Part shown: positions 17,292 through 43,978 of the stretch, piece after piece
Layout of the letters: each line of letters starts with the position of its first letter
Numbering within the stretch: position 1 is the stretch's first letter
DNA from: an uncultured Candidatus Saccharibacteria bacterium
GTDB taxonomy: Bacteria; Patescibacteriota; Saccharimonadia; Saccharimonadales; Saccharimonadaceae
NCBI GenBank assembly: GCA_937981355.1
Contig: CALJPD010000019.1
Span: forward strand, 1,829 to 65,828
Length of the DNA: 64,000 nt
Direction: 5' to 3'
Notes under the pieces: model-generated
Seen by the model: the letters and a program-made list of their open reading frames with translations, nothing else
Told to the model about the DNA's origin: nothing
Database searches by the model: none
Made by a program: the position numbers and the translations under genes

Positions 17292-17298
17292 AATACCT

Positions 17299-25936: not shown

Positions 25937-27319
25937 GTGTACCACAGTTTGTGGAAGAGTGTTTTGGGTGAGATTGAAGTGTCGATACCAAGCGGTATTT
26001 TTTCGACGTGGTTTGCCAATACCGAGATGCTCAGCAACAAAGACGGGGTGATCACTATTGGCGTGGTGAATGTCTTTGCGATTCGCCAGTTTGAGGTGCG
26101 CTACGATAGCATCGTCAAAGAAGCGCTGCAGAGCAGTGGTATTGAGGTGTCGCGCATCGCCTATGTGGTGAACAAACGCAGCAAAAAACGTACTGTTATT
26201 AGCCGCGAAACTACTGGTCAGCCAACCAACCGCGTCGAGGAGCGAGCAGCAGCACTCATTAGCAAGCCAACCACCCCCTCGCACTCTAGTTCTCCGACAC
26301 CAGCGACAAGCCTCAATGCGCGCTATACCTTCCAGAATTTCATCGTCGGCTCGAGCAACGACCTCGCCTACACCGCCTGCCAAGCGGTCGCACATAGCCC
26401 TGGTACGAAGTATAATCCCCTCTTTATCTACGGTGGCGTCGGTCTCGGTAAGACACACCTCATCCAAGCGGTAGGTAATGAGATCCTTGCGCGCGACCCA
26501 CGCAAGAAGGTCGCCTATCTGAGCTCGGAGACGTTTGTTAAAGAATTTATCGAGTCGATCCGCTTCAAAAAGGCTGGCTTTTCTGACCGGTACCGCAATG
26601 TTGATGTGCTCATCGTCGACGACATGCAATTTATTGCTGGGCGCGAAAAGACTCAGGAGGAATTCTTTCACACCTTCAATGCCCTCCACCAAGCCAACAA
26701 GCAAATTATCATCGGTAGTGACAAGCCACCGCACAGCATCCCTACCCTGACGGAGCGCTTGCGCAGTCGCTTTGAATGGGGGATGGCAATTGATATCCAG
26801 ATGCCCGACTTCGAGACGCGCTGTGCGATCGTCGAGACCAAGGCGAGCTTCGCTGGTGTAACGCTTGAGCGCGACACCGTGGAATATTTGGCCAAGAACG
26901 TCAAGACAAATATCCGCGAGCTCGAGGGCGCGCTTAATCAACTTCTTGCTTATGCCGAGATGCGCGGCGTCGCTCCTGATGTAATGACAGCGGAGGGTTT
27001 GCTTGGTAACGTCCGACGCAGTCGCCCCCAACACCTTACTGCCAAGCAGATCATCGATAAGACTGCCCGCCATTTCCAGATCGATAGCAAAGAAATCTGT
27101 GGTGCTAAGCGGGCTAAGCATATCGTTGTGCCGCGACAAATTGCCATGTACTTACTGCGCAGCGAGCTCCACATGAGCTTTCCACAAATTGCCAATGAGC
27201 TAGGCCGCAAAGACCACACTACCGCCATCCATTCAGTCGAAAAAATCGAAAAGTCCATCAAGCTCGACTACCTCATCCGTGAGCAGGTCGCTGACATCCG
27301 GGATAAGCTCTATGCCTAA
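25937..27319 (+). CDS. dnaA: Chromosomal replication initiator protein DnaA
   Basis: N-terminal LWKSVLGEIE...FSTWF, AAA+ Walker A GGVGLGKTHL, Walker B LIVDDMQF, and a C-terminal DNA-binding helix-turn-helix. GTG start with AAGGAG 12 nt upstream. Confidence 0.9.
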   Translation: MYHSLWKSVLGEIEVSIPSGIFSTWFANTEMLSNKDGVITIGVVNVFAIRQFEVRYDSIVKEALQSSGIEVSRIAYVVNKRSKKRTVISRETTGQPTNRVEERAAALISKPTTPSHSSSPTPATSLNARYTFQNFIVGSSNDLAYTACQAVAHSPGTKYNPLFIYGGVGLGKTHLIQAVGNEILARDPRKKVAYLSSETFVKEFIESIRFKKAGFSDRYRNVDVLIVDDMQFIAGREKTQEEFFHTFNALHQANKQIIIGSDKPPHSIPTLTERLRSRFEWGMAIDIQMPDFETRCAIVETKASFAGVTLERDTVEYLAKNVKTNIRELEGALNQLLAYAEMRGVAPDVMTAEGLLGNVRRSRPQHLTAKQIIDKTARHFQIDSKEICGAKRAKHIVVPRQIAMYLLRSELHMSFPQIANELGRKDHTTAIHSVEKIEKSIKLDYLIREQVADIRDKLYA

Positions 27320-27443
27320 GCCATGTGTCTTTTTCGCTGCGCCTGTGGAAAAGCCGTGCACAGCTGGTCGTATAACCCGCGGACAGCTCGTAGGCAATCA
27401 TCCACAGCATGAAAAGCACACCATACGAAAGCCTTACTGGCTG

Positions 27444-27556
27444 GTGGATAACCCCTGCTTCTCCCCGATTTATCCACGCCAGCGATCGCAGCGTTTTACA
27501 CAAGTAGTGGGCAGGTCGTACCTCTGTTATTCGTCATGGTTTCCACAGTATCCACA
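27444..27556. promoter_or_regulatory. DnaA-box cluster in the dnaA-dnaN intergenic region
   Basis: GGTGGATAA at 27444-27452, TTATCCACG at 27469-27477, and TTTCCACAGTATCCACAG at 27540-27557. An AT-rich tract follows, before dnaN. Confidence 0.5.
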
Positions 27557-28704: not shown

Positions 28705-29703
28705 ATGAAGATAACACGGCTAGCAGTGCAGCATGTGCGAATCCATACGCTCAAGACACTCAACCTTGAGCCAGGTACGACGCTGATTTCTGGCCCAAAT
28801 GGCTCTGGTAAGACATCGCTTATTGAGGCGATTCATATTGCGCTGCGTGGTACTTCCTTTCGCGGTAGTGATGAAGCAGTCTGCCAACATGAACAAAAAA
28901 GTTATACAATTGATCTTGCGACGGATGAACAACATTACCGCGTCCAGTACGATCGTCGACATGAGACGAAGCGCAAGCGTTTTATTGTCGATGGTACAAC
29001 CTATGGTCGCCTTCCCTATGGCAAAAAATATCCGATCGTCCTTTTTGAGCCAGACACATTGCGGATTATCACTGGCTCGCCGCAGCGCCGGCGTGATTTT
29101 CTCGATACGCTTATCCAGCAATATGATGCACACTATAGTCACGAACTAAGTCGCTACCACCGAGCACTGCAGCAGCGAAATAAATTACTCAAAGACCCTA
29201 CCCTCAGCGAGGCGGCACTTTTCTCGTGGAATCTTATCTTGAGTCAGTATGGCGCGTCGATCATTACGAAGCGTCAGCGCGTGCTGCGTTATCTTAATGC
29301 AAAAAGCAGTGCTATGTACCAAAGTATTGCGGGCGTAGCGGATAGCGTTGCGCTGCACTACTCGGAGGAGCGCAGTATGACCGCGCAGCAGCTTCTCGCC
29401 GAGTATGAGCAAAAAACAGCGTACGACAAAGCAATTGGCGCGACGAGTGTTGGCCCACACCGGCATGATATCACGGTGCTATTCCGAGGCAATCCGGCCG
29501 CCAAGACTGCATCGCGCGGCGAAACCCGCACCATTGTGCTTGCCCTCAAATTTCTCGAAGCAGCCTACATCCAGCAGCAAACAGGCCAAGCGCCACTCAT
29601 TCTGCTCGACGATGTCTTTGGTGAGCTCGACCAGCAGCGCCAGCAGCGCCTCCTCAGCGAATTCATCGATAACCAGATTGTGATGACGAGTGCGGTGGGG
29701 TAG
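28705..29703 (+). CDS. recF: DNA replication and repair protein RecF
   Basis: Walker A GPNGSGKTSL at the N-terminus, SMC-like signature, and C-terminal Walker B LILLDDVFGELD. Confidence 0.85.
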   Translation: MKITRLAVQHVRIHTLKTLNLEPGTTLISGPNGSGKTSLIEAIHIALRGTSFRGSDEAVCQHEQKSYTIDLATDEQHYRVQYDRRHETKRKRFIVDGTTYGRLPYGKKYPIVLFEPDTLRIITGSPQRRRDFLDTLIQQYDAHYSHELSRYHRALQQRNKLLKDPTLSEAALFSWNLILSQYGASIITKRQRVLRYLNAKSSAMYQSIAGVADSVALHYSEERSMTAQQLLAEYEQKTAYDKAIGATSVGPHRHDITVLFRGNPAAKTASRGETRTIVLALKFLEAAYIQQQTGQAPLILLDDVFGELDQQRQQRLLSEFIDNQIVMTSAVG

Positions 29704-29711
29704 GCTCCACT

Positions 29712-30440
29712 TTATATATCAGTATACATATAGCACCACGGTGGGTTGTTGCCGCCACACGGGACAGCACGCTTCTTTTCTAATTCCTCGGCAGTGGGGT
29801 ATATTTTACCATTGATTTTTATGTCGTATTTATCAATATCTTTGTCGTATTTTTTAAGATAGCTGAGCGCTTGGTCAACCTGTGATTGGCTTGTCTTGTC
29901 TGTTGTGACAATGCATATACCAAGCCGATTTGATCGGTCGGTCGTGCGATATGGGTTGCAGGTAACAATATAAAACCAACGCGAGTAGCGAGGAAGTTTA
30001 TTAATAAGAGGACTGTCTTGAGATATCTTTGCTCCTCCTTGTGTTGTTTCGTGACCCCCGATTGCTTCGCGGATATCATTATATCTTTCCCTCTTCGCTT
30101 CCCTCTTCGCCTCCTCGGTTAGCGGCTTCATGGCAAAGAATAACTTCTTTTCTTCGCCTTGCTTGAGATCTAACTTAACCTGGTGGTCGGCAAACCCTTT
30201 GGCTCGGAATATGTATGTGTATGACCCACTTTTTACGGCGTGTTTTGTCCGCGTTGTTACCTTTTGGTCTTTGATTGTATCATACGAGACAGTGAGATTA
30301 TCGGGGATAGCATAGACAAGGATAGTACTGTCGTATTTGAGATTATCAACAAAGCGATATATCGTAAAAGCAATCATGCCAACGGCAAGCAGTGCAAATA
30401 TTGCGATAACTTGGTTACGTTTTTGATTGAGTATTTCCAT
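29712..30440 (-). CDS. Hypothetical bitopic protein, last gene of the T4SS operon (VirB8/TcpC-like candidate)
   Basis: N-terminal TM helix IAIFALLAVGMIAFTIY followed by an approximately 200-aa extracytoplasmic domain with a C-terminal CGGNNPPWC. GAGGA SD 6 nt upstream. Overlaps the upstream hydrolase gene by 26 nt. Confidence 0.45.
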   Translation of the reverse strand: MEILNQKRNQVIAIFALLAVGMIAFTIYRFVDNLKYDSTILVYAIPDNLTVSYDTIKDQKVTTRTKHAVKSGSYTYIFRAKGFADHQVKLDLKQGEEKKLFFAMKPLTEEAKREAKRERYNDIREAIGGHETTQGGAKISQDSPLINKLPRYSRWFYIVTCNPYRTTDRSNRLGICIVTTDKTSQSQVDQALSYLKKYDKDIDKYDIKINGKIYPTAEELEKKRAVPCGGNNPPWCYMYTDI

Positions 30441-31794
30441 TGACTGTCCTCGCTAATACAACACCCGAGTTTCCAAGCATCCACTCGATTGTTCCTTGAT
30501 TAATATAAGATGGGACGTGATCATATTGAGAAGCTTGCGCACCGACAAACCCATTACCAAGATCACCTAAATAAAACAGTGTATGACCATTAAAGACTAG
30601 AATATCGCCAGGCTGTAAATCCCCCATACTTGGGGATTCTTTAGTATAGTATTTCTCAGGATGGCTGAGGACATAAGGCCGCTGGTTGACTGTTCCAGCC
30701 GGTGGGTAATTTGGGTCTGCTCCACTCATACGCATCACTGTTGCAACGTATTTGCCGCAGTCTGTGTAGTCACCACCCGCTTCTGGATTATACTGCTGGC
30801 GAGCATTTCGGTATTCTTCTTTTTCACCACCATTACCAACTCGCCGTCCGTCCTCCCAAGCAAGACTCTTGGCTGTTTCAACGATTGATCCACCGGCGGC
30901 ACTCTTATTACCATTTGCGGTGCAACCTCCGGTCGAAGCATTTTGGGCGTTAGTGCCATTGTTATTACCACCTTCGACTTGGATTTGGGATGAAGGCGGA
31001 GACAAGTTTTCTTCCTTGACAATCTGCTCAATCTTGTCAATATATTCGGTGACAGTCGAGACGTATTGACTGTCGGTAGCATAGCCAGCATTTTTGATTT
31101 CCTGGAGGTATTTGCGTGGGTCGCCGGGGTATTTGAGGGCTTCGCTATAGCGTGAGTTACTAGTGATGAATTCGCCATAGCCAAGCCAGCCAGCCTCGAC
31201 GGTAGGATATTTGCGAAAACCATCAACGATTGTTGTCCGGCCAGAGGAGTATTCTTCCTCTGTTTCCATATCGATTACCTCGCCCGACCAATTTCCGCCA
31301 GCCTTGATGCCGTGGAAGTTGTTTGCCTTGACGGTAAGACCAGATTTACCATAACCAGACTCAATAACTCCCTGAGCGAGGACCGTCTCGTATGGCGTGC
31401 CATACTTTTTGTTCGTTTCGACAGCCATCTTGACATACTTACGGACGAAGTCCTTGAGGTCTTCTGCTGCAGTCCCGCTACTACCGTCGCTACTGCTGGT
31501 GGTGCTGGTAGAGCAGGTTGCTGCGTCGGGGTCGAAATGTTCGATGTAGTTGCCAGAAAAGAATCTTGCATCTAAGGCTGAAGCAGGAGTTGACACGAGA
31601 GAGAATACTATCGCAAAAACAAGAGAACTTATTCGATAAATGGTAGTGCAGCGAGAAAAGAGTTTCGTCGATGGCGAAAAAAGAGACAGAAAGCTAAGTA
31701 ATCGTTGCCGAATATATATTCGGCAACGAGCGATAAAAACGCAAAGAAAGTATAGACACCGAGTAAAAGTAATGTGAATCCATCGTATGATCAT
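30415..31794 (-). CDS. CwlT-like bifunctional cell-wall hydrolase (glucosaminidase/muramidase domain + NlpC/P60-like peptidase)
   Basis: Central LAQGVIESGYGKS...NNFHGIK...GYATDSQYV (Pfam Glucosaminidase/FlgJ-like). C-terminal CGKYVATVM...GDILVFNGHTLFYLGD (Cys...His papain-like). Start chosen at the ATG that overlaps the upstream TGA as ATGA, with GGAGGG 5 nt upstream. Confidence 0.6.
   Translation of the reverse strand: MIIRWIHITFTRCLYFLCVFIARCRIYIRQRLLSFLSLFSPSTKLFSRCTTIYRISSLVFAIVFSLVSTPASALDARFFSGNYIEHFDPDAATCSTSTTSSSDGSSGTAAEDLKDFVRKYVKMAVETNKKYGTPYETVLAQGVIESGYGKSGLTVKANNFHGIKAGGNWSGEVIDMETEEEYSSGRTTIVDGFRKYPTVEAGWLGYGEFITSNSRYSEALKYPGDPRKYLQEIKNAGYATDSQYVSTVTEYIDKIEQIVKEENLSPPSSQIQVEGGNNNGTNAQNASTGGCTANGNKSAAGGSIVETAKSLAWEDGRRVGNGGEKEEYRNARQQYNPEAGGDYTDCGKYVATVMRMSGADPNYPPAGTVNQRPYVLSHPEKYYTKESPSMGDLQPGDILVFNGHTLFYLGDLGNGFVGAQASQYDHVPSYINQGTIEWMLGNSGVVLARTVNGNTQSKT
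31705..31726. repeat. 22-bp perfect palindrome TTGCCGAATATATATTCGGCAA inside the 5-prime region of the CwlT-like gene
   Basis: The sequence is self-complementary across all 22 nt. On the minus strand it is followed about 15 nt later by a UUUUUU run. Confidence 0.6.
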
Positions 31795-34760
31795 GATGAC
31801 CCTCCAATGCGTCGAGCATATTCCCAGTGCCATGCCTCTGGTTTGCTACCATTTGGTTCTGCCCATTCAGGGTGGACATAGCCATACTTATGAGCGTTAG
31901 CTTTGAGCCAATTGTAAGTAGAAGAACCAAAGTCTCCCACGCTGATATCTGCTGCGAGCCCCCAGCCATGGTTCGAGCTACACGGTGGCGCTGGCTTGGC
32001 GAGGCCACCTTGGTATAGTGGGTCACCTGGTGTTGCGTATGCAATTTGTCGTTGGCAGTCTCGGTATGCCTCATTAATACCGAAATCAGCACCAGTTTCT
32101 GCTTTGTATGCTTTGTTCATTTCTTCCATAGCGGTGGCGGCTTGTTTATGCATCCTCTCGCCGGATGAAAATGACAGAGCTACCAAGTCGCCTTCTGCCA
32201 GCTCGCCGTTTTTAAGACCATTCCACGTTGATATAGAATCGCCGCCTTCTGCAGCAGGCTGGGCTTGGTTGAATTCTGGCTCACCAACTGCCGAGCCACT
32301 GGGGGTGTTACTGCTAGATTGGTTTGTTCCACCACCTCCACCAGAGATTGGTTCATTGTCCATGGTGTCGACGACGCGTTGGTCGATCGTGAAGAGTGCA
32401 GCATTGACTTTTTCTTCAGAATCAAACTTGCAATAATCAGTATCGACACCATTCTCGCCATCAGTGCCTTTGCCACATTTTTCTTGCCATTCTTTGAGCG
32501 TGCCGCCAGTTGCTTCGCCTGTTTCTTCGTTGTATTGCCCAGCAAGAGATTGGGCGACATCGTCGGGATCTTTATCAAGATTGAGCGCACCATACGATAT
32601 ATTGCAAAATGGCCCAGCAGCGACGTCTTTGGGGATATTTGGGTCATCGCACGCTTGCCAAATCTTTTTCATGCGATCTGTTTCGGTATTAGCGCTAACT
32701 TTGTTGCCAAAGAAGGCCGGTACGATATTCTTAGGGAGCGATACAAGATTATGAACAAAACTACTAAGATTAGAAAAGCTGCCCATGTATGGAATAAATG
32801 AACTATAGAGACTTCCCATAAAGGTATATGGCGATGTTGCGTCAAAGGGGCTCCGCTCAACGCGTTGCTCGGCGGCATAGGCAAGATTGAGATGAGCTGT
32901 TTCTCGTTCGTAGGCAATTGTTTGGTCAACATTGAGCATGCCGTTACCGCCCGCTGCTGCTGCTTCGGAGAACATATTTACTGCACCACTCGTTAGAGCA
33001 TCCCCAGCATCTTCGCCAACGGTAGCGCTACTCACGAGGGTGCCCGCCATAGAATTTATGAGCTTACTGAGAATTGGCGCAAGTACAGCAGAAATAACAG
33101 GAGCAGCTAAATTTGAGACTAACTCACCGACGACACTTGTCCATCCACCAACAACACTCATGAGAAGCTGACCACCAGTACTATTGATAACCTTGCAGGA
33201 TGTTTTCAGCGCACCAATATTAGCCCCAAGGGCATTGGCAACGCCACCCATCTTCCGGGCCCACCCTCCGCCAGGGACATATTCCGTCCAGTTGGAGGTA
33301 CCAGTTGGGGCTATTTCTTTTAGTAAGCCGTACTTGAGACCCATTCCGTCGGTTGCGGCTTTTTTGGTTACATTGCCAGCTTTGTTGACGAGTACAGTAG
33401 TCAGAATCGTCCCAAGTACAGCAACGGCTATATAATCTGTTGAGCCAGCTTTAATATTATCTGCCATCGTAAAGAACATCATGGCATAGCTAATGACCTG
33501 CGTCATTTGAATGAGGCGAATTGTCTTACTGATAGACTTAGCACCATCTTGCACCATACAGAGGCCACCAGCAATCATAGCGACAATATTACCAGTTTTG
33601 CCGACACCGTTTTTGATAATATTGGCAGCTGCTTCCTTAGTAACAGATTTTGTTGCTCCTTCAGTTCCTTCACCTACTGCTTCTTTAGCGGCTTTGCCAA
33701 CATCGGTATCTTCAGTAACCTTTTCTTTGCCTTCATCGTCATTTTCCTTGGCTTCATATTTGCCTTTCATTTCTTGGCCTTTGGTATTTTTGTCGATGCT
33801 TTCGCGGACTTCTTTCTCGCTTTTGGCACCAGCGAGCTTGTTTTTCTTGGTAAGAGAGAATTTTTTTATGACGCCATTGTTAAACACTTTATCGAAGAAA
33901 GCGACCCAACGCGGTGCATATGCGCGGTGCATAATTGCTCTGAGCTCAGGCTTCTCATAATATAATTTTTTAAAATCTTTGGCGCTAATTGTTTCCTGGG
34001 TGCCATTAGGGTAGGTGACACGCAGATTCTCGATTTTTTCACCGATTGTGGACTTTTTTGCATCAAACCCATCGGAAGCTTTGACGACATTCCCTTCCTT
34101 GTCGAGGGCTTCAACATTATTTTTTTCAAATTGCTTTAGCAGCCGATTCGAAACACGATTATAGCGGCATCGTACATTCACAACCGAACAAAGGCCATCG
34201 GTTGCAGTGTTTTGGATGCGCTTGAACATCACCTTATTAGCGCGTCGTTCGAAGCTGGTATTTTGTGAATTCCAGTGGTTGGTGAGATTTTCTTTGATAT
34301 GAAGCAAAAGTAGGCTTGGCCCACCAAAAAATGAGAGCATTGAGCCACCACCAAGCAAAATAGCGCCAAGGATACCCATTGGCCCGCCCTTCTTAGAGAA
34401 GATAGCACTCCGCGCCTTGGCAAAACGAGATTTGGGTTCAGAGAGTTTACTGTCTGGCGGGACTACCTTATTGAACCAGTTATTATCGCTCCAGTTACTT
34501 CCTGGCGCGCCTTCTTGGCCTCGGACGGAGTTGGCATAGTCGCTGCCAGTTGTACTAGTACTGTTGGCGTTATTATGGGCGGATGAGCCACTCCCGCTAT
34601 TCTCGCGTGACTGGAGGTCTTGGGCGGTGTTGGATTGGCTATGATCACTACTGCCAGCATGGTTATTCCGACCAGCGAAGGTGTCGTTGCTCCAATGCGT
34701 ATTCCCCGGATTATGCCGGTCGAGGTCGGGTTTTTGTTGGGAAGGAATAGGGGTAGGCAT
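31791..34760 (-). CDS. T4SS-associated large polytopic membrane protein with C-terminal peptidase M15 (VanY/D-Ala-D-Ala carboxypeptidase-like) domain
   Basis: 989 aa. Ser/Asn/Gly-rich N-terminus, multiple TM helices in the middle, and a C-terminal HGWGLAADI...EAWHWEY zinc-peptidase M15 signature. Confidence 0.55.
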   Translation of the reverse strand: MPTPIPSQQKPDLDRHNPGNTHWSNDTFAGRNNHAGSSDHSQSNTAQDLQSRENSGSGSSAHNNANSTSTTGSDYANSVRGQEGAPGSNWSDNNWFNKVVPPDSKLSEPKSRFAKARSAIFSKKGGPMGILGAILLGGGSMLSFFGGPSLLLLHIKENLTNHWNSQNTSFERRANKVMFKRIQNTATDGLCSVVNVRCRYNRVSNRLLKQFEKNNVEALDKEGNVVKASDGFDAKKSTIGEKIENLRVTYPNGTQETISAKDFKKLYYEKPELRAIMHRAYAPRWVAFFDKVFNNGVIKKFSLTKKNKLAGAKSEKEVRESIDKNTKGQEMKGKYEAKENDDEGKEKVTEDTDVGKAAKEAVGEGTEGATKSVTKEAAANIIKNGVGKTGNIVAMIAGGLCMVQDGAKSISKTIRLIQMTQVISYAMMFFTMADNIKAGSTDYIAVAVLGTILTTVLVNKAGNVTKKAATDGMGLKYGLLKEIAPTGTSNWTEYVPGGGWARKMGGVANALGANIGALKTSCKVINSTGGQLLMSVVGGWTSVVGELVSNLAAPVISAVLAPILSKLINSMAGTLVSSATVGEDAGDALTSGAVNMFSEAAAAGGNGMLNVDQTIAYERETAHLNLAYAAEQRVERSPFDATSPYTFMGSLYSSFIPYMGSFSNLSSFVHNLVSLPKNIVPAFFGNKVSANTETDRMKKIWQACDDPNIPKDVAAGPFCNISYGALNLDKDPDDVAQSLAGQYNEETGEATGGTLKEWQEKCGKGTDGENGVDTDYCKFDSEEKVNAALFTIDQRVVDTMDNEPISGGGGGTNQSSSNTPSGSAVGEPEFNQAQPAAEGGDSISTWNGLKNGELAEGDLVALSFSSGERMHKQAATAMEEMNKAYKAETGADFGINEAYRDCQRQIAYATPGDPLYQGGLAKPAPPCSSNHGWGLAADISVGDFGSSTYNWLKANAHKYGYVHPEWAEPNGSKPEAWHWEYARRIGGSS

Positions 34761-34766
34761 AATGAA

Positions 34767-36602
34767 CTACGACCTCACTGGCTGCTGGTATAAGCTGTTA
34801 TTGGCCACTGGGTTGGTGGTAATGAATTGTGTCTCAGTCTCGCTGGCAAAAATGCGGATATGGACGTGGTTTTGCCCAGCAAAGAAGAGGCCATCTCCCA
34901 CAGGGAAGTTAGATAGACGCTTACGCTCCTCCTCGGTGAGCTTGAAGACCTCAGCTAGCACATCCACCGCACTGGTCGATTGCTTTAGCAAGAGTTGAAG
35001 CGAGCTGTTTGCTACAATAGCTCGGCCCTTCTCGCTCCCCATAAAATCCTCTACGTCCTGTGTGATAGTCGTCAGACCCAGAGAGTACTTACGAGCTCGC
35101 TTGGCTAGGCTGTGGAGAAATTCTGCCGAGTCTTCGTACTTCATCAACTGCCAGGCCTCATCGACGATCAGCATCCTCCGGCGTTGTACGGTGCGAGCGA
35201 TATTCCAGATGTGGCTCAGCACAATATACATCGCTACTGGCCGCAGGTCGTCCTCGAGGTCGCGGATATTAAACACCACCATGCTGTTATTGATATCAAC
35301 ATTGCTTTGCTGGCTAAAGATGCCAGCAAAGGTACCCGTGGTGTATTTGCGCAGGCGCTGGGCCAGTGACGGCCCTGCTCCACCCATGTGAAGGAGAGTA
35401 TCGTAGAGGTCGATGATAGTCGGTGGCTGAGAATTATGTGTTAGTGGATCGCTGGTAATACCAGCCCGGGCGTAGGTATCGATAAGTGCTTGGTCGAGAT
35501 CGGCCTCTTCAGCTGGGCTGAGCAAGGCAATCTGTTGCCCACCCACCAATGTGCCGCCCAACATAAGCTTGAAGAGCCGCTGCAGGGTGATGAGATTAGC
35601 GCGCAGGGCGTCGGTTGCTTCGTCGCTGTCGATTACTCGGGGGAGGTCAAAAGGATTAATTCGCGTATCGCTACTGAGGCTGAGGCGAATGTAACTGCCG
35701 CCGACTGCATCAGCTAATTTCTGGTACTCGTTCTCCGGGTCGATGACGAGGATGTCGGTGCCAAGCATCATACTGCGCAGTGCCTCGAGCTTAACGGTGA
35801 AGGATTTACCAGCACCAGACTTTGCAAAGACGACCATATTTGCATTCTCAAGGCTAAAGCGGTCGAAAATAACGAGTCCTTGGTTGTGCTGGTTGACGCC
35901 GTAGAGAATACCCTCGCCGTCGCTGAGGTCGGCACTGGTAAAGGGAAAGCTCGTGCTCACCGCACCAGTGTTCATGTTGCGGCGGACTTGCAGTTGGTCG
36001 GTCATTTGGGGGATGGTGCTGTTGAGGCCTTGCTCTTGCTGGTTGCTGGCGGTCTTGCTATAGACCATATTTTGGCCAAAGATTGTCTCGATGACGTGCT
36101 GGACAAAGCTTAGCTCCTCGAGGCTATCGGCATAAAGGGTGACATAGAGTCCAAAGCGGAAGAAGCGTTCGGCCCCAAGCTGTAGCTGGTCGCGCAATTC
36201 CTCGGCGTCAGCCAGAGCGGCCTCGCGGGCTGGGTCACGCACCTTACCCTTCTCGGAATTAAGTGCCATATCGGCCTCAAGCTGAGTCACCTTCTTGCGG
36301 AGGTTATTAAGGACGATCTCTGTCTCAACAGGGTAAATAAACATGCTAATATCGAGCACTTGGTCGATGTTGATCAATCCTGACAGCCAGCCTGTGTAGA
36401 GCTCACGTGGGTAGCCATAGATGTAAAGTGTGCGGCCATACTTGGTGCCAATGCGGAAGTACGTGCTGTGAATCTCGAGACTGCTGGGAGCGATTAAGTC
36501 GCGCAGTGTCGTCATCCCCTTGATAAAGGCTTCTTCTACCTCTGCTTGCTCGCGCTCGCGCTGCTGGGCAGCAATGTCGATTGGATCGGGTCGTCGTGCC
36601 AT
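34767..36602 (-). CDS. virB4: VirB4/TraE/ConE-family T4SS ATPase, C-terminal 611-aa part (central and ATPase domains)
   Basis: Walker A FAKSGAGKSF about 260 aa from its start, Walker B-like ML(I)VDEAW, and a conserved ...TKYGRTLYIYGYP...GWL block of VirB4. AAGGAG SD 8 nt upstream of an ATG that overlaps the upstream TAA as TAATG. Confidence 0.7.
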   Translation of the reverse strand: MARRPDPIDIAAQQREREQAEVEEAFIKGMTTLRDLIAPSSLEIHSTYFRIGTKYGRTLYIYGYPRELYTGWLSGLINIDQVLDISMFIYPVETEIVLNNLRKKVTQLEADMALNSEKGKVRDPAREAALADAEELRDQLQLGAERFFRFGLYVTLYADSLEELSFVQHVIETIFGQNMVYSKTASNQQEQGLNSTIPQMTDQLQVRRNMNTGAVSTSFPFTSADLSDGEGILYGVNQHNQGLVIFDRFSLENANMVVFAKSGAGKSFTVKLEALRSMMLGTDILVIDPENEYQKLADAVGGSYIRLSLSSDTRINPFDLPRVIDSDEATDALRANLITLQRLFKLMLGGTLVGGQQIALLSPAEEADLDQALIDTYARAGITSDPLTHNSQPPTIIDLYDTLLHMGGAGPSLAQRLRKYTTGTFAGIFSQQSNVDINNSMVVFNIRDLEDDLRPVAMYIVLSHIWNIARTVQRRRMLIVDEAWQLMKYEDSAEFLHSLAKRARKYSLGLTTITQDVEDFMGSEKGRAIVANSSLQLLLKQSTSAVDVLAEVFKLTEEERKRLSNFPVGDGLFFAGQNHVHIRIFASETETQFITTNPVANNSLYQQPVRS

Positions 36603-37561
36603 TAAAAATCTCCTTTGTGATATGCTGTCGAGGTTGGGACAGCTCCCTCGCCTTTGCGGACGAAGGTGGAAGTCACGTTATTAAAGTCGCCCAGCGGCTC
36701 GCGCACTGCCGTGTCGGGGTTATACATGTTGTAATAGAGAGTGCCGAGCTCCTTAGTCTTGAGTTGCACTGCACGCACACCAATCTGCATCAAGCCGTTG
36801 AGGATGGTGTCAGCCCGGTTACGAATTTCCTCGCGGGCTCGCTCGTAGGTTTCTTTGCTGATCTTCGTCACGGTGTTGGTATTCTTAGGGGCGAAGAGCT
36901 TAGTGAAGAACCCTTTACTCTGGTCGAGAATCGTCCCCTCTCCTGCTGGGTAATACGGGATGACGACGTAGAAACTCTTGTCCATGATGTTGGCGTTTTG
37001 CGAGAGGTCGTCGATGAAGTTGATATAGTCTTCCATCAGTACGCTGAGCAGCATGTTGTCTTGGGTGCGCTGGATAGCAACAAGCTTATCCAAATACGGG
37101 CCAATATCGACCCGCTGCGAGCGGATGCAGATCTGCACTGGGAAGTATAGCGCATTGAGGAAGTTCTGGTAGCTATACTCTACCCCCTCGCGCTCACGGG
37201 CGCTCATCAGGTCGAAGTTAATCGACTCACAGGCGATGACGGCGCGGAAGCTGCCATCACCCATGATGATCATATCATCGCGCAGTTCTGAGAGGAGGAG
37301 GCTATTCTGCGTGGTAGCGGGCTTGGGCGGAGCCTTTTTCTTGGTATCTTGAGTAGGCTGATCATTCGTACCACCCTGCACAGCTGGTGGCTGAGCCGGT
37401 GTTTGTACTACGGGGTAGTTACTCTGCGGCGGAGCGGGGTACTGCGGATAATTAGCTGGTACCTGGCCCGCTGGCGCAGTGCCCTGGCCTTGGCTATACC
37501 CAAACTGGCTGGGTGGCCCAGCTGGTGGCTGTTGATTGTTGGGTGAATTTGGTGACACCAC
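36602..37561 (-). CDS. VirB4 N-terminal domain encoded as a separate ORF, with a 100-aa Pro/Gln-rich N-terminus
   Basis: ...DGSFRAVIACESINFDL...QNFLNALYFPVQICIRS... resembles the N-terminal domain of Gram-positive VirB4 proteins. The ORF ends TAA overlapping the next ATG. Confidence 0.5.
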   Translation of the reverse strand: MVSPNSPNNQQPPAGPPSQFGYSQGQGTAPAGQVPANYPQYPAPPQSNYPVVQTPAQPPAVQGGTNDQPTQDTKKKAPPKPATTQNSLLLSELRDDMIIMGDGSFRAVIACESINFDLMSAREREGVEYSYQNFLNALYFPVQICIRSQRVDIGPYLDKLVAIQRTQDNMLLSVLMEDYINFIDDLSQNANIMDKSFYVVIPYYPAGEGTILDQSKGFFTKLFAPKNTNTVTKISKETYERAREEIRNRADTILNGLMQIGVRAVQLKTKELGTLYYNMYNPDTAVREPLGDFNNVTSTFVRKGEGAVPTSTAYHKGDF

Positions 37562-37576
37562 TCTCCTTCTTATTTC

Positions 37577-39394
37577 TTAGCGCAAAGGGATGACAATCTC
37601 ATCATCGTCATCATCTTGACTGGCCTGCTCTTGATGTTGAATCCGGTTGGCTTCATTGGCAATGGCAGCAACGGACAAATCAGAGTTGCTGGCTAGTCTA
37701 ATTATATCAGGCGAGACGGTGTTTGTGCTAGTGTTTGGCGGCATATTGTTGCGTTGCTGGGCGAGCTGCTCCTCACGTAGACGTTCCTCGCGCGTGGGGG
37801 TTGTCTTGGCGTAATAGCTGGGGTCGAGCGGCTGGATGACCGACTGGTGAATACTGGGGTATGGGTTGTAGCGCACCGCCATATCGATGACATTTTTGTC
37901 ATCAGCCAGTGTCGAGCGCTCCCGGTAGGACACGGCGGCTGGGGTGGGTGCGAGAGCTTGTGTGGTTTGGGCTGGTGCGACGGGTGGCTGCTGAGTTGGT
38001 ACTGGCTGCTGGGAAGGGTGTGGCGTAGGAGTGTGTGGATAATTGGGAGTTGGCGCTGCTGGGGTCGGTTGCTCTGCAGGTGCTGGAGTGAATGGCGGCT
38101 GAGTATCGGTAGGAGGTGTTGCTTCAGCTGATGGGTAGCTGGGTGCAGTTGTGGTGCGCGTGGCTGACTTTTGGGGTGGCACAAGCGGCACAGCATCAGT
38201 GGTGGGAGCAACGTGCTGGCGCAGGTTGGCATAGATCGTTTCGAAGGATGGTGTCTCCTCTGGTTTGGGCTCTGGCGCAGTTTCTGCTGTGGGTTTAGCC
38301 GGTGTGTAGGGCTTACTCAGGGCGTCTGGCAAAACCGAATCGTGTGGAATAACGGCGGGCAGTGCCATTGGTAGAGACTGGAGTGAGTCATGCGCCACAT
38401 CATCCACTGGCGAAATCTCGTATACCTTGGTAGATTGCTGAGGTGGGTATGGGTTTGGTTGATTTTGGTAAGCGCTAGCGTCGGGTGAAGGAGCTTGCTG
38501 ACGCGACGATACAGTGCGGTTCTCCGGGAAACTCGTGGACGAATACGACACCGCTGGGCGCTGAGGCTCTGGTGCTGGGTATGGCGGCTCAGGCATACGA
38601 GGCTGAGGTGGTGATACTGGTGCAAAACCAGCATCGTCAACTGGTGGCTGGTATGGTGGTGTAACCTGTGGTGGAATAGTTGGAGTTGGCTGTGCTGCTG
38701 CCTGGTATGGTTGCGGCTGAGTCTGCGGCCATGCTGGCTGATATGGCACCGGGGCTTGCTGGAGTGGTTGCCCATCAGCTATGGCAGGTAGTGCAGCTGG
38801 TGGGGCTTGCATGCGCTCAATGGCGGCCTGGCGCCGGGCTTGATTGGATTGCTCAATGCGCCGCGTCATCGCCCGTGCTTCGCTGCTGTTGTCATCAAAC
38901 ATATCCGAGGTCTGCTGCGCCTCGAAGTAGACGTCACTAATCATCGACCCCTGTGCATCGGGCACGCGGGTGTGGCGGATAGACCAGCCATGGCTATCAG
39001 CTAGCTGTGACAGATACGCCAGGCGGCGCTCGGCTTCGTCTTGGCTGAGGTTCTTCGTTCGCTCAATCTCCACTTTCTCGGGCACCGTAATCTCGATTAA
39101 CGAGTTAATGCCATCAGGTTGCCACATCCGTCGGCGTGGCTTGGTGTAGAATGACACTATCGCCGCAAGGTAGACCTCCATTGGCTGATCCTTGCGCAGT
39201 GGCAAAGCTAGCGCACCAAACAGCAGAATAATCGGCACTGGAATGACCGCCAGCGGCAAAAACACCTGTGACAATCCCCACGCCAACGCAATCCCCGCCG
39301 CCGCAACTAGCAGATAAATAAACTGGCGAAAGCTAAACGGCCCAAGAATCTTATCCTCTGCCTCTACATCCTGCGCAACCTTATATCTCGACAT
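37577..39394 (-). CDS. PrgI/VirB3-like T4SS membrane protein with an approximately 430-aa proline-rich C-terminal extension
   Basis: N-terminus KVAQDVEAEDKILGPFSFRQFIYLL followed by two TM helices matches the PrgI family. The remainder is P/Q/A/T-rich low complexity. Confidence 0.5.
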   Translation of the reverse strand: MSRYKVAQDVEAEDKILGPFSFRQFIYLLVAAAGIALAWGLSQVFLPLAVIPVPIILLFGALALPLRKDQPMEVYLAAIVSFYTKPRRRMWQPDGINSLIEITVPEKVEIERTKNLSQDEAERRLAYLSQLADSHGWSIRHTRVPDAQGSMISDVYFEAQQTSDMFDDNSSEARAMTRRIEQSNQARRQAAIERMQAPPAALPAIADGQPLQQAPVPYQPAWPQTQPQPYQAAAQPTPTIPPQVTPPYQPPVDDAGFAPVSPPQPRMPEPPYPAPEPQRPAVSYSSTSFPENRTVSSRQQAPSPDASAYQNQPNPYPPQQSTKVYEISPVDDVAHDSLQSLPMALPAVIPHDSVLPDALSKPYTPAKPTAETAPEPKPEETPSFETIYANLRQHVAPTTDAVPLVPPQKSATRTTTAPSYPSAEATPPTDTQPPFTPAPAEQPTPAAPTPNYPHTPTPHPSQQPVPTQQPPVAPAQTTQALAPTPAAVSYRERSTLADDKNVIDMAVRYNPYPSIHQSVIQPLDPSYYAKTTPTREERLREEQLAQQRNNMPPNTSTNTVSPDIIRLASNSDLSVAAIANEANRIQHQEQASQDDDDDEIVIPLR

Positions 39395-39480
39395 AGCTTA
39401 TGTATTTATTATAGCATGAGGGGGATAGATGGACAGTAAAGATGAGTGATTGGTTTACTTTACAGAAGCGAGAGAGGATA

Positions 39481-42234
39481 TTAGATATCTTTCCATTTTC
39501 TCATTGCTTGTGCGTGATTATTTACCATTGGGTTACCAAGAATTTCTGGAGATAATTCTGGCGAGTTAAGAGCAGCCTCGACAGCTTGTCCTGTTGCTTT
39601 GCGCGCTTCAAAAATATCATTATAGCTAACACGTGGGTCTTTTGAGTGTCTTTTGTTGAGGGCTTCATGTAGATTCCTTGCTGCAGCTCCATCCATTTGT
39701 GCGACTTTAGACGCAGTGATTTTGCCAGCATTTGCTGCGTCAGTAACAGCCTTATCGAAGTTAAATTTTCCAGACTGAATATCGGCAATTGCACGACCGG
39801 TCACCCAGGGGTTCTTACTAGCCGCACCTGAATCTCGAATACCCTCAGCGAGTGTTTGAAGATCAAAGGCGTCTAGTGGCCCCATTGACGATTCTGGATC
39901 AACGGATGCTTCTGCGAGCTTTTTAATCTGATCTGAGTTTCCACCCTTGGCTGCTCGTTGAAGGACAAAACGCCTGTCATATTGAGGCATTTTAGCGCCT
40001 TCAAGAATTGGGACAAGCTCGCCCTTCTTGTTTCTCCCCATTATATTTCCACCCATTGCAAGATCAAAATAATCGCCCTGAGTAAGTGATTGCTTTTTGC
40101 CCTCAGCATTTACATATTCTATGTTTTCGTATTTTGCTTCAGCGAGGTCCATTTCCTCTTTTGACTGCTGTTTTATAATATTGGCAGCATTCCCTTGGGC
40201 GCGTCGAGCTGTCTCTCCAATAGCCCCTGGGACTCTCCCGGCTATATTGTTGATACCGCCCATTGTTTTGCTTCTTGCATTTCTGACCCAGTTTGTGGGG
40301 ATCCAGTTAGAACCTCTATAGGTGCCCGCTTGTATTTGTGCCCGCCTACGCTCTTTATTTCGTTTACGAGTGGCCATAAGTTGCCCATACATAGAATTAT
40401 CCAGCCCAGACTGCAATTTCTTCTCAGTAGCATTACCAGCTAGTTTACCCCATCTATCGGCAATATTCGCTAGCCCCATCATTGAGGTCATGAGGCTTGT
40501 CAGACGAGAGACCAGGAGAAGTGGCGTGAAGGTAAGAGCAGCAGCAATAATCTGTAATAATACCTCCGACTCACCCTTCATACCATTAATGACCGTTGCT
40601 CCTAGGTTGCACGCACCATAGAGCAGGCCAACTGCAGGGTAAAGAAGGAGTAGTGTCTTGAAGAACCCCCACCACTTCTTGAACAGTCCCTCCGTACTTG
40701 GTAATAGCAGTGCTACAAAGGCAAGCGGAGACAAGATAATAGTAAAGATAACCAATGCATGCCGTGCCCCAAGTAAGAATACTGTGACTGTGACGGTGAC
40801 GGCTACAAAGACAAGTCCAGAGATGAGCGCCCCTACAACAAAGAAGCCAACAGTACCAGCAAGAACCAAAGCAGCAAAACCGGTCCACCCATTACCTTTC
40901 GTTGCCCAGCCACCCTCTGGGCCACTCCCACCACCACCAAGTGAGGTAATGAAGTTGAACGATGATGACCCAACAATATTAGAGATATCGACAAGAATGC
41001 TACATATATAGAAAGATATATTGACGAGGACGATAGTCATAAGAAGCTTGGGTAAAAGCTTCTTAATACCATAATTGCTAATACCAAGACCACTAACCTG
41101 TGAGTAGATAACAATCAAGAAAACGATAATAAAGACGATATTGGCAATATCACGAATGCGCGACCAATAGTGAAAGGCCGAGTCGGGGCCACGATCTGTC
41201 AATATAAACGAGTTAACTTCAAGTAGCTTGGCCAAAATACCTGCGGAATCGTCTGAGATGTCGGCGAGGAAGTTGACGACGGGGCAGATGATCCAGCCAA
41301 TACCGTCAATGGCGCAGCGTGATTTGGAATCTTCTCCCCCATCTTTATTTTCTTCACTAGCGCCGGCTGCTTGAGAAGCCTGCTCTCCTGTTCCAGCATT
41401 GGTGTTGCCACCTGTGTTGGCTTTATTTTTCTCGGCTTCTTTAATTGCAACCTGCGCTTGCTCTGTGACTTTTTTTGATTTATCTATACAAATTTGTTCA
41501 TCTTTTACTTCTCCAGCACCAGGCCCTGCTGACAAAGTTTTGTCAGTTGGGGCTGTATATTTTGCTATAACTTGCTGTACTACGTCGTTGTTGCCGTCTT
41601 TCCCAATTTTGCTGTAGGATATATATCCATCTTTTGCCTTGTCTGCGAGAGTAGTTTGAGAACTATTAAATTCTGATCGATTTTTCTCATCCTTGACAGA
41701 GCATGTACTAACAAAGTCGCTGTAATAGTACGAATATAATTCGCCTGGTGATAGATATTCCTTTGGGTCATCATTTTTTACACCAAGCTTGCTTCTAATT
41801 GCTCTGTTCACACCTCCTTGCTTGCCATTAGTCGGCTCCCACCAGTCTCCTCCTCCATCATCTTTTCTATACCCAGCTGCAGTCAGAAAATCTTCAGCGT
41901 CTGAAAAACCCCATTTGGGGATACCCTCTTCGTAAATAGCAGTACAAGACATTTCTTTGCCTCCGACAGTGCGTTTCCTACTAAGCTTGGACCCCTGAAG
42001 AGAATTACCCGAAATATCTTTGAAATAAAGCCATTTTACATCATCAAAACACCCTGGGTCAAGACTGTTACTGTCCCCATTCTGGCCCATATATAAAACC
42101 CACGTCCGAACCTTATCATCATGATCATCAGCATACGCCTTGTGGTCTATAAATACACTAAAACTCAGCACGAGAATAATAGCTAATGGAAAGAGTGAAA
42201 AGCGCTTTAGCTTAGATACAAGAGAGTTTGTCAT
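39481..42234 (-). CDS. VirB6/ConG/TcpH-like polytopic T4SS channel protein
   Basis: 917 aa. Signal peptide, about 300-aa extracytoplasmic N-domain, 7 or more TM helices including CAIDGIGWIICPVVNFLADI, and a C-terminal soluble domain. Confidence 0.5.
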   Translation of the reverse strand: MTNSLVSKLKRFSLFPLAIILVLSFSVFIDHKAYADDHDDKVRTWVLYMGQNGDSNSLDPGCFDDVKWLYFKDISGNSLQGSKLSRKRTVGGKEMSCTAIYEEGIPKWGFSDAEDFLTAAGYRKDDGGGDWWEPTNGKQGGVNRAIRSKLGVKNDDPKEYLSPGELYSYYYSDFVSTCSVKDEKNRSEFNSSQTTLADKAKDGYISYSKIGKDGNNDVVQQVIAKYTAPTDKTLSAGPGAGEVKDEQICIDKSKKVTEQAQVAIKEAEKNKANTGGNTNAGTGEQASQAAGASEENKDGGEDSKSRCAIDGIGWIICPVVNFLADISDDSAGILAKLLEVNSFILTDRGPDSAFHYWSRIRDIANIVFIIVFLIVIYSQVSGLGISNYGIKKLLPKLLMTIVLVNISFYICSILVDISNIVGSSSFNFITSLGGGGSGPEGGWATKGNGWTGFAALVLAGTVGFFVVGALISGLVFVAVTVTVTVFLLGARHALVIFTIILSPLAFVALLLPSTEGLFKKWWGFFKTLLLLYPAVGLLYGACNLGATVINGMKGESEVLLQIIAAALTFTPLLLVSRLTSLMTSMMGLANIADRWGKLAGNATEKKLQSGLDNSMYGQLMATRKRNKERRRAQIQAGTYRGSNWIPTNWVRNARSKTMGGINNIAGRVPGAIGETARRAQGNAANIIKQQSKEEMDLAEAKYENIEYVNAEGKKQSLTQGDYFDLAMGGNIMGRNKKGELVPILEGAKMPQYDRRFVLQRAAKGGNSDQIKKLAEASVDPESSMGPLDAFDLQTLAEGIRDSGAASKNPWVTGRAIADIQSGKFNFDKAVTDAANAGKITASKVAQMDGAAARNLHEALNKRHSKDPRVSYNDIFEARKATGQAVEAALNSPELSPEILGNPMVNNHAQAMRKWKDI

Positions 42235-42326
42235 ACACTACATATAATACACAAAAATAAGTAAGAAAACCAGCCAAATAACGTAAGTAATGTATGATAT
42301 TTGGCTGGTCTTTGCTTCAACAAGGG

Positions 42327-43451
42327 CTATTGTTCTTCGACATCGTTGAGAGGCGCAGTAATCTCTGGTTTTATAGCGCGAGCCTCGTCGCTTTTGTCGT
42401 CTGTTGGATAGAGGTAAGACATGCGAGGGAATGAATGCACTGTGTATTGGCCCGTTTTTCGATCGTTTTTAGTTATTTGCCTTTGGCGCTCAATACCTGC
42501 GTCGTATGATTTTTTATCCTTATCCTTTTCTCTCACCTCTTGTACTTCGCAATATGCTGCCGAATATACCTGGGGTTGATTGGTTTCTTTGCCGTCGTTG
42601 ATTGGGAATGGGTCTTCGTATGGTGCCATTTGGGCGCATTTCGTAACGCGGAGAACTATGCGGTCTTCTTCCTTCGGTTTTTTGCCTTTCGTATGAGCTT
42701 CATAGGCAGCTTCGACAAGGCGGCCATAATAACCGTGGGGTTTTGATTGGTTTTTATCGCCGCCATCTTTACTCTCATCATTGGAACCTCTAACAATGTT
42801 AGAATGTGGGACGTCTATATAATCTGCCAAGCACCGCAGCACTGGCCATGCGTCGACTTCTCTACCCTCTGCATTTGTGAATAAAGCATTTGACTGAGCA
42901 TCATCACAGAGATCACGGAAAAGTCGATCAACATTATCAAACCACGCAATTGCCAACTCTTTTGACTGGTCAGCACGTGATTCGGTAAGAATTGTCATGA
43001 CATTGGGGTCAAGATTGTTACTAAAGAAGGTTTTACACGTGAGCCCTTTGTCATAGTCATTTAAGGTATCCCACCTGTTAGAATCGAATTCGCTGAGATT
43101 TGCGAAATTATACGACCGGAGGGGCTTGGGTCGCTCACTACTTGGTGTGCCAGGCTCTACCGGCTCTTGGGTAGGTGACGGAGTTTCTGTCGCCGTGGCA
43201 GATGGGGTTGCTTCTGGGCTCGAGCTTGGAGATTCTGATGGAGAGGGTGTTTCTGAAGAGGCTGAGCTAGATCGGCCACGACCTAAAAGAGCTGCTGATA
43301 GACCTGCTCCAACAGCCAAGGCTGCACCACCGAGACTCAAACCGAGAAGGAAATCTCGTCTACGGGGTTTTTTTTGTTCATGTGAGGCTGCACTATCTGG
43401 TTCTTCAGATCCGCTAGCGTTTGCCGGATAACCATTGTATTTGTCTGTCAT
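42327..43451 (-). CDS. Secreted protein with Tat-type signal peptide and Ser/Pro/Thr-rich linker (first gene of the T4SS operon)
   Basis: The RRRDFLLGLSLGGAALAVGAG twin-arginine motif, then an SPSESPSSSPEATPS linker, then an approximately 250-aa domain. Start taken as the ATG at 43451 with GGAGGA 9 nt upstream. Confidence 0.45.
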   Translation of the reverse strand: MTDKYNGYPANASGSEEPDSAASHEQKKPRRRDFLLGLSLGGAALAVGAGLSAALLGRGRSSSASSETPSPSESPSSSPEATPSATATETPSPTQEPVEPGTPSSERPKPLRSYNFANLSEFDSNRWDTLNDYDKGLTCKTFFSNNLDPNVMTILTESRADQSKELAIAWFDNVDRLFRDLCDDAQSNALFTNAEGREVDAWPVLRCLADYIDVPHSNIVRGSNDESKDGGDKNQSKPHGYYGRLVEAAYEAHTKGKKPKEEDRIVLRVTKCAQMAPYEDPFPINDGKETNQPQVYSAAYCEVQEVREKDKDKKSYDAGIERQRQITKNDRKTGQYTVHSFPRMSYLYPTDDKSDEARAIKPEITAPLNDVEEQ

Positions 43452-43518
43452 AAGCTTCAATCCTCCCCAATACAGGATTAGTGGTTATGTGTGCTTATTG
43501 TATGCGCACTTGCGTTTC

Positions 43519-43547
43519 ATGCTACCATTGTTTGCGCGGCAGGTCAA
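43519..43547 (-). promoter_or_regulatory. Candidate promoter TTGACC-N17-TAGCAT for the T4SS operon
   Basis: The minus strand reads TATTTGACCtgccgcgcaaacaatggTAGCAT about 70 nt upstream of the first gene. A 330-bp AT-rich tract lies further upstream. Confidence 0.3.
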
Positions 43548-43888: not shown

Positions 43889-43978
43889 GGAGAGGTGCAA
43901 GAGTGGTTGAATTGGCACGCCTGGAACGCGTGTGTGGCGGCAACGTCACCCAGGGTTCGAATCCCTGTCTCTCCGCCA
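43889..43978 (+). tRNA. tRNA-Ser (anticodon GGA)
   Basis: Hand-folded: 7-bp acceptor stem, 3-bp D stem, anticodon stem CACGC/GCGTG, loop CTGGAAC, long variable arm, T arm CAGGG-TTCGAAT-CCCTG, and an encoded CCA. Confidence 0.85.

Follow-up and report, generated by a model that had tools for sequence, protein, structure and literature searches.

A Saccharibacteria type IV secretion system beside the likely replication origin, with an invariant VirB4 motor between two variable cassettes

The stretch of DNA analysed here (referred to as the window) comprises 64,000 nucleotides of contig CALJPD010000019.1 from an uncultured Candidatus Saccharibacteria bacterium, and carries at positions 29712–43460 a minus-strand operon encoding a type IV secretion system (T4SS). 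The operon is made up of eight open reading frames (ORFs) that overlap or lie at most 92 nucleotides apart, all of which were recovered at the positions given in an earlier interpretation made without database searches (the sequence-only reading). recF is convergent to the operon, with 8 nucleotides between its stop codon and the last stop codon of the operon. The T4SS identity proposed in the sequence-only reading is borne out by hidden Markov model (HMM) and fold searches for seven parts, including the split VirB4, PrgI/VirB3, VirB6, the M15 protein and the glucosaminidase/NlpC-P60 hydrolase, and the locus is that of the T4SS already published for Saccharibacteria (TM7), minute bacteria that grow upon other bacteria. 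The genes of the operon are listed below.

29712–30440, minus strand: PEGA-type bitopic protein, 242 residues (transmembrane scan, PEGA matches in its family; counterpart of SEML1_0005)
30415–31833, minus strand: bifunctional wall hydrolase, 472 residues, predicted to be secreted (PF01832, NlpC/P60 profile, transmembrane scan)
31791–34760, minus strand: M15 membrane protein, 989 residues (PF02557; counterpart of SEML1_0007)
34767–36602, minus strand: VirB4 ATPase, C-terminal motor part, 611 residues, Walker A GAGKS (NF045971, TraG P-loop, AAA_10)
36602–37561, minus strand: TrsD-like protein, 319 residues, a detached VirB4 N-terminal domain following a Pro/Gln-rich tail (NF041427, VirB4_CagE)
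37577–39394, minus strand: PrgI/VirB3-like membrane protein, 605 residues (PF12666, transmembrane scan)
39481–42234, minus strand: extended VirB6-like channel protein, 917 residues (TrbL link through relatives, fold search)
42327–43460, minus strand: protein with a twin-arginine (RR) motif, 374–377 residues (counterpart of SEML1_0012)

The 611-residue protein matches the NCBIfam VirB4-like family of the CD1110 type (NF045971) at 1.2e-113 with 381 bits (curated cutoff 325) over profile positions 173–732, and is assigned by sequence to the Patescibacteria VirB4 clade that is related to MPF-FATA. It is 100% identical to VirB4 of several oral Saccharibacteria metagenome-assembled genomes (MAGs) and 77–85% identical across the class, with a range of 77–100% among 80 Saccharibacteria genomes. 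The N-terminal domain of the ATPase is encoded separately; the 319-residue protein has weak matches to TrsD (NF041427, 5e-5) and to VirB4_CagE at profile positions 19–185. The stop codon of trsD and the start codon of virB4 overlap by 1 nucleotide, and each of the 80 related loci has a TrsD-like gene immediately upstream of virB4; the split is therefore a conserved feature and not a frameshift. The third member of this group, PrgI, matches PF12666 at 2.5e-12 over residues 5–90, which form a transmembrane hairpin, and continues into a Pro/Gln-rich, low-complexity tail of about 500 residues. The TrsD-like protein opens with a Pro/Gln tract of about 90 residues that resembles the PrgI tail. By the topology of VirB3, both tails should be cytoplasmic.

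The variation of the operon is apparent from eight related loci (L001–L007 and L009), each from a different species representative, mostly MAGs, and about 91% identical to the window at the nucleotide level in the flanks. In blastn comparisons identity extends up to 29699, is lost, returns over 34692–39426, is lost again and is back from 43446. The first of these breakpoints coincides with the end of recF, the second lies at codon 23 of the gene for the 989-residue protein, the third 32 nucleotides upstream of prgI and the fourth at the RR-motif protein's start codon, and they delimit three segments.

29700–34691, unstranded: variable cassette A, with the PEGA protein, the hydrolase and the M15 protein (blastn breakpoints and allele matrix; GC 0.467, GC at third codon positions (GC3) 0.44)
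34692–39426, unstranded: conserved core, with the first 23 codons of the 989-residue gene, virB4, trsD and prgI (about 91% nucleotide identity in 8/8 relatives; GC 0.546)
39427–43446, unstranded: variable cassette B, with the VirB6-like and RR/NTF2-like proteins (blastn breakpoints and allele matrix; GC 0.45, GC3 0.39)

Cassette A is replaced wholesale in close relatives, and cassette B wholly or in part. A per-gene identity matrix separates the alleles into three groups, alpha (the window, L002, L003 and L005), beta (L001, L004 and L009) and gamma (L007), and L006 is a hybrid that combines beta-type genes for the 989-residue, VirB6 and RR proteins with alpha-type genes for the hydrolase and the PEGA protein. 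Between groups the proteins are 17–38% identical or cannot be aligned, except that the alpha and gamma forms of the M15 protein share 54% identity. The architecture is nevertheless kept across groups, with a VirB6-like protein that has a TrbL match, an M15 ending, and a lysozyme plus a cysteine peptidase. Replacement also reaches below the level of the group: even among the alpha relatives L002, L003 and L005, the C-terminal domain of the VirB6-like protein (39481–40430) is replaced, whereas its ectodomain and transmembrane core have about 86% nucleotide identity.

The type of cassette does not follow the similarity of the flanks. The relatives closest to the window in dnaN (L007) and in the ABC gene (L009), each with a synonymous divergence (dS) of 0.06, nevertheless carry gamma and beta cassettes respectively. 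Mis-assembly of MAGs was considered as a cause of the mosaic and rejected, since each allele type is present in three or four independent assemblies. The base composition is also partitioned, with GC of 0.45–0.47 in the cassettes (GC3 0.39–0.44), 0.55 in the core (GC3 0.55–0.65) and 0.50–0.52 in the flanks (GC3 0.53–0.63). The sequence-only reading had described the GC content as matching the flanks, which is true only on average, as the operon contains two AT-richer blocks, and these are the ones exchanged between relatives.

The VirB4 motor between the cassettes is invariant, with 0/611 amino-acid changes in 8/8 comparisons, at a dS of 0.27–0.40 and 5–7% nucleotide divergence. DnaA, DnaN and RecF from the same eight genomes have 3–15 changes each, and VirB4 is under more constraint than any of these three. 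Close relatives have exchanged the cassettes, probably through homologous recombination in the flanks that are conserved, which is plausible because Saccharibacteria are naturally competent. No paper describing this cassette pattern around an invariant VirB4 was found in the literature, and the invariant motor between exchangeable cassettes may be the sole element of the locus that is new.

Cassette B begins, in the direction of transcription, with the RR-motif protein, for which the ATG at 43451 is the probable start. It consists of an N-terminal tail, the RR motif with a hydrophobic segment, a Ser/Pro linker and a folded α+β domain of about 260 residues that is predicted with a local distance difference test score (pLDDT) of 80–90. 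The RRxFL motif is conserved, with the RR pair invariant in 24 homologues and found also in unrelated alleles; the Pfam TAT-signal match is weak (0.02). When alternative alleles were compared with hhalign, the common signal was confined to the N-terminal anchor and linker, with none in the globular domains. In the cultivated relative Candidatus Southlakia epibionticum, SEML1_0012 occupies the same position and is described as having a TAT signal and a domain of the NTF2-like kind exemplified by pIP501 TraM (PMC10633639), and in the TM7x annotation virB8 adjoins the virB6 genes. On these two grounds the RR-motif protein is likelier than the 242-residue protein to be the VirB8-like (NTF2-like) component, albeit with weak fold evidence. 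The sequence-only reading had taken it to be secreted by the twin-arginine translocation (Tat) pathway. The motif itself stands, but no TatA or TatC entry (PF02416, PF00902) is present in the Pfam table of the S. epibionticum proteome or in the window, and the former makes Tat export doubtful. The RR segment may instead be a plain membrane anchor with its N-terminus inside, which is the topology of VirB8.

The 917-residue protein consists of an N-terminal anchor or signal, a Cys-containing α/β ectodomain (residues ~40–230), a polytopic transmembrane core (~310–600) and a helical C-terminal domain (~690–917). A Pfam scan of this protein itself gave no match, and a PF19590 label precomputed on its homologues was discarded, as it was not reproduced by hmmscan. 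The VirB6 assignment is based instead on relatives and on fold: the transmembrane core (residues 307–662) is 43% identical to a homologue, P0292, that matches TrbL/VirB6 (PF04610) at 2.9e-6, and the L001 allele matches TrbL at 4e-5. A search of the whole PDB with Foldseek, using an AlphaFold 2 (AF2) model of pLDDT 71, returned TrwI/VirB6 chains of the R388 T4SS as the top four hits, with probabilities of 0.80–0.94 but E-values of only 0.1–0.3. A strongly basic stretch follows the last transmembrane helix and suggests that the C-terminal domain is cytoplasmic. As a matter of speculation, this domain might serve as a substrate receptor that replaces a coupling protein.

In cassette A, the 242-residue protein has a single N-terminal transmembrane segment (residues 10–28, transmembrane scan) and belongs to a family of 142 clusters, with proteins of about 200–240 residues, in a search of 1.8 billion representatives. 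The PEGA β-sandwich domain (PF08308) is matched by 31 of 50 aligned relatives and none of the 50 matches VirB8 or NTF2 families, so that the VirB8-like role proposed in the sequence-only reading is not upheld, and the protein is placed by its sequence relatives in the PEGA-domain family. Its counterpart SEML1_0005 is likewise annotated as a PEGA-domain exported protein (PMC10633639).

The 472-residue hydrolase contains a glucosaminidase/muramidase domain (PF01832, 5e-28, residues 135–269) followed by a C-terminal domain (~300–472) that is identified through its relatives. When 21 homologues encoded in related loci were combined into a profile, it matched MepS/Spr and other NlpC/P60 structures with a modest E-value of 0.003, and the Cys of a DCGxF motif and the His of a GHT motif align with the NlpC/P60 catalytic residues; the C-terminal 170 residues alone gave nothing in a single-sequence Pfam scan or a phmmer search of the PDB. 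The protein can thus be assigned to the CwlT/PrgK type, in which a glycosidase and an NlpC/P60 domain are combined in one polypeptide. A signal-peptide-like segment occurs internally, at residues 62–80 in the transmembrane scan and at 62–88 when its ASA motif is included, and the 5’ end of the ORF is for this reason probably over-extended, with the real start downstream. The first ~55 codons resemble non-coding sequence.

The 989-residue membrane protein ends in a VanY/M15 LD/DD-peptidase domain (PF02557, 8.9e-13, residues 868–982), and the profile of its family matches solved M15 carboxypeptidases in the PDB at 2e-10. The same search identified the C-terminal peptidase only; the central ~700 residues match nothing known. 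In 70 of the 80 loci virB4 is followed by a large ORF, for example L001:11843–14941, and the encoded protein has the same body with a C-terminal peptidase that varies, being VanY/M15 in 14, M23 in 8 and C39-like in 3 of 36 sampled proteins.

One further component lies outside the operon and had been missed in the sequence-only reading, whose list of the eight operon genes otherwise stands.

61003–61431, minus strand: VirB2-like pilin, 142 residues, with a signal peptide and two transmembrane helices (PF18895, 1.3e-8)

The pilin gene is separated from the operon by 17.5 kb and is flanked by tRNA-Ser genes at 60728–60815 and 61800–61892. Pilins of related loci were used to build an HMM, which matches this gene alone in the window, at 1.5e-40, and found no further pilin. 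Arrays of 2–7 pilin genes adjoin the operon in 28 of the 80 loci and in none of the close relatives of the window. The pilin may have been parted from the operon by rearrangement between tRNA-Ser copies. A third tRNA-Ser (43889–43978) abuts the operon; all three were found by ARAGORN, and an Rfam scan at the gathering threshold returned one only (61800–61889).

On the other side of the operon lie recF, dnaN and dnaA (25937–27319), identified by Pfam or by sequence. DnaA boxes number 26 in the window against 14 expected, with clusters just upstream of dnaA (25751–25875) and in the gap between dnaA and dnaN (27344–27556), which places the operon about 2 kb from the likely origin. Other neighbours recognised by Pfam include genes for polysaccharide synthesis, rnpA-yidC-jag, a MacB-type ABC pair, cell-wall genes and valS. 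Scans of the window for promoters and terminators gave consensus-level matches only, barely above the shuffled expectation, and were not used. A 769-residue protein encoded at 7999–10308 on the plus strand has seven repeats of the ChW (clostridial hydrophobic W) type. Its gene lies inside a block of 22 kb that also encodes glycosyltransferases, RmlD, a Wzt/ABC-2 exporter and GtrA, and the whole may be a locus for surface polysaccharide in which the ChW protein binds the wall. Among the glycosyltransferase genes, at 17281–19217 on the plus strand, are two adjoining genes that resemble the β and α subunits of succinyl-CoA ligase (ATP-grasp_2, CoA_binding, Ligase_CoA), which is unexpected for a lineage said to be without the tricarboxylic acid cycle. 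At ~62340–64000 on the plus strand, an open frame extends over 554 codons or more and continues past the right end of the window.

The T4SS of Saccharibacteria has been described before. For TM7x and for Saccharibacteria in general, McLean et al. 2020 (PMC7427843) reported a T4SS region that encodes VirB4, VirB6 and VirB2 together with an array of small secreted proteins. Wang et al. 2023 (PMC10633639) showed by transposon sequencing (Tn-seq) that SEML1_0006–0019 of S. epibionticum are essential, drew attention to pilins and to the absence of any coupling or relaxase protein that could be recognised, and presented in SEML1_0004–0019 the gene order of the window beside recF, with nearly all genes essential. 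Quinonero-Coronel et al. 2025 (PMC12102498) placed the VirB4 clade as related to MPF-FATA, with TrsD, PrgI and VirB6 near virB4, relaxases rare and dnaA/dnaN close, and found TrsD to be the most abundant T4SS component in Patescibacteria. A 2025 review regards the system as the first T4SS that is essential for the survival of its bearer.

The agreement with the cultivated relatives S. epibionticum ML1 and Nanosynbacter lyticus TM7x is close. In all three, the cluster converges on recF after dnaA-dnaN, contains neither relaxase nor type IV coupling protein (T4CP), and follows the same order of PEGA protein, lysozyme/cysteine-peptidase hydrolase, large protein with an M15 (Hedgehog/DD-peptidase) domain at its end, VirB4, TrsD-like, PrgI and VirB6-like proteins, and then the TAT-signal/NTF2-like protein or, in the window, its candidate counterpart. 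Compared with ML1, the window has a single VirB6-like gene where ML1 has two, lacks the 249-residue prealbumin-like gene beside recF, encodes a hydrolase of 472 rather than 643 residues without the phage-tail-lysozyme domain and a PrgI of 605 rather than 300 residues, and has its one pilin 17.5 kb away, whereas the six pilins of ML1 form a divergent array that abuts the cluster. Across the class, the order VirB6-PrgI-TrsD-VirB4-large hydrolase protein is present in nearly all of the 80 loci that extend far enough, and dnaN-dnaA, often with recF, adjoins the T4SS in most of them; the synteny with Saccharibacteria proposed for checking in the sequence-only reading is found. The window also shares with the wider Patescibacteria clade TrsD beside virB4, a PrgI-type VirB3, VirB6, downstream hydrolases, proximity to dnaA/dnaN and the absence of a relaxase from the cluster, whereas strain-level cassette replacement around an invariant VirB4 was not reported in that class-level study (PMC12102498).

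Gram-positive conjugative T4SSs (ConB-ConG/CwlT of ICEBs1, PrgH-PrgL of pCF10, Tra of pIP501 and CD1110 of CTn2) resemble the window in having VirB4, VirB3- and VirB6-like proteins, a VirB8-like protein (a candidate in the window) and a bifunctional hydrolase, and in lacking VirB7, VirB9 and VirB10; the CD1110 family of CTn2 is the best model for the VirB4 of the window. They differ in that the system in the window has no relaxase, T4CP, integrase or element borders, has a split VirB4 and a VirB2-like pilin, and is a chromosomal system beside the origin that is class-wide and is essential in a cultivated relative.

Pfam scans of the main ORFs of the window (at least 140 residues) found no VirD4/TcpA-type coupling protein, relaxase or integrase, as the sequence-only reading had stated. 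Its wider description of the system as lacking a coupling protein holds for the 64-kb window only, since S. epibionticum encodes a TrwB/TraD-like T4CP, SEML1_0293, at a distance from the cluster (PMC10633639). An integrative and conjugative element (ICE) inserted at the adjoining tRNA-Ser (43889–43978) was considered and rejected, there being no integrase and the T4SS having an unchanged chromosomal position in most of the 80 loci. The marks of an ICE are lacking, with no relaxase, coupling protein or integrase among the main ORFs of the window and no patchy distribution among the 80 loci, and the view of a resident, monoderm Saccharibacteria-type T4SS distinct from an ordinary ICE is in agreement both with the literature and with the shared site.

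The organism is an oral Saccharibacterium. Taken together, it is highly probable that the locus is a resident chromosomal T4SS, derived from the MPF-FATA type and located beside the chromosomal replication origin (oriC), that is needed, going by the cultivated relative, for epibiotic growth on an actinobacterial host. The requirement for epibiotic growth would follow from the Tn-seq results in S. epibionticum, and the lack of nonsynonymous divergence in VirB4 (dN = 0) is consistent with it. In the proposed mechanism, a VirB4 hexamer assembled from two polypeptides, the TrsD-like N-terminal domain and the motor, would dock on PrgI/VirB3 and the extended VirB6 in the cytoplasmic membrane, and the bitopic NTF2-like and PEGA proteins would scaffold a path through the wall. 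The glucosaminidase/NlpC-P60 enzyme and the membrane-anchored M15 peptidase would open the cell’s own peptidoglycan and possibly that of the host, and the VirB2-like pilin would form an external fibre. Such a machine would move a protein or another macromolecule across the contact between epibiont and host, but not itself. What it carries, in which direction, and what the cassettes do are inferred.

Several points weigh against this account. No substrate or effector was identified; the absence of a coupling protein and relaxase covers 64 kb, and, given the T4CP homologue elsewhere in S. epibionticum, the system may yet transfer DNA; essentiality and natural competence are borrowed from another genus; and the relatives compared are mostly MAGs, although their allele types recur in several independent assemblies.

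The same components can be read as a wall-attack or killing system, like the bactericidal T4SSs of Xanthomonas and Stenotrophomonas, in which the linked hydrolases would be delivered as cargo to break through the wall of the host. Each cassette A allele does contain two hydrolases with interchangeable domains (glucosaminidase, phage-tail lysozyme, NlpC/P60, C39-like, M15 and M23), and these domains and the proteins that carry them are the most variable parts, as would be expected of proteins that meet a varying target. However, monoderm conjugative T4SSs carry hydrolases such as PrgK, CwlT and TraG purely for assembly through their own wall (PMC12102498), one of the two hydrolases is membrane-anchored in the producer according to the transmembrane scan, and no immunity gene is evident beside them, which leaves this reading unlikely. 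Somewhat less likely again is an import device comparable to archaeal Ced or Helicobacter ComB, bringing host DNA, nucleotides or other macromolecules into the dependent epibiont. Saccharibacteria are unable to make nucleotides, amino acids and lipids (PMC10633639; 2025 review), and an essential apparatus would suit a feeding role. The match of VirB4 to the DNA-import ATPase CedB that also favours import is weak (3e-11, far under the cutoff) and is confined to the P-loop region that the two have in common, no component specific to uptake was found, and deletion of comEC in S. epibionticum abolishes competence while viability is kept, so that DNA uptake by that route is not the essential function.

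The remaining alternative, that the apparatus is still a DNA-conjugation machine, exporting chromosomal or other DNA with the help of a distal coupling protein and a relaxase too divergent to be recognised, is very improbable. It draws on the conjugative CD1110/MPF-FATA type of the VirB4, on SEML1_0293 and on T4CP homologues in 2,918 Patescibacteria genomes, which are rarely near virB4 (PMC12102498). The same study counts only 109 relaxases in 103 Patescibacteria genomes, again rarely near virB4, and reports the T4CP of S. epibionticum to be non-essential, unlike its T4SS genes. A growth-essential apparatus is hard to square with a purely conjugative role, and the window itself contains no relaxase, T4CP or integrase.

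The Trw system of Bartonella, a conjugation-derived T4SS, may offer an analogy. It lacks a coupling protein and has been repurposed for host interaction, with exposed parts that vary, its surface subunits being under diversifying selection, and a motor that is conserved. Trw varies by tandem amplification of paralogues in a diderm, and here whole cassettes differ between genomes of a monoderm.

As a rediscovery of a published system, the locus adds little beyond showing that a T4SS of this kind is recognisable from raw sequence. The mosaic is an observed property of the compared genomes; its link to host range is one that may exist. It is possible, if rather doubtful as a whole, that the Saccharibacteria T4SS consists of an invariant motor (VirB4, TrsD and PrgI) and two cassettes of envelope- and host-facing parts, namely VirB6 including its C-terminal domain, the RR/NTF2-like and PEGA proteins and a pair of wall hydrolases whose catalytic heads can be swapped. 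Close relatives would trade these cassettes through transformation and recombination in the conserved flanks, and the cassettes would set the range of hosts or wall types. If the cassettes do decide host compatibility, they would provide a handle on host range in oral Saccharibacteria.

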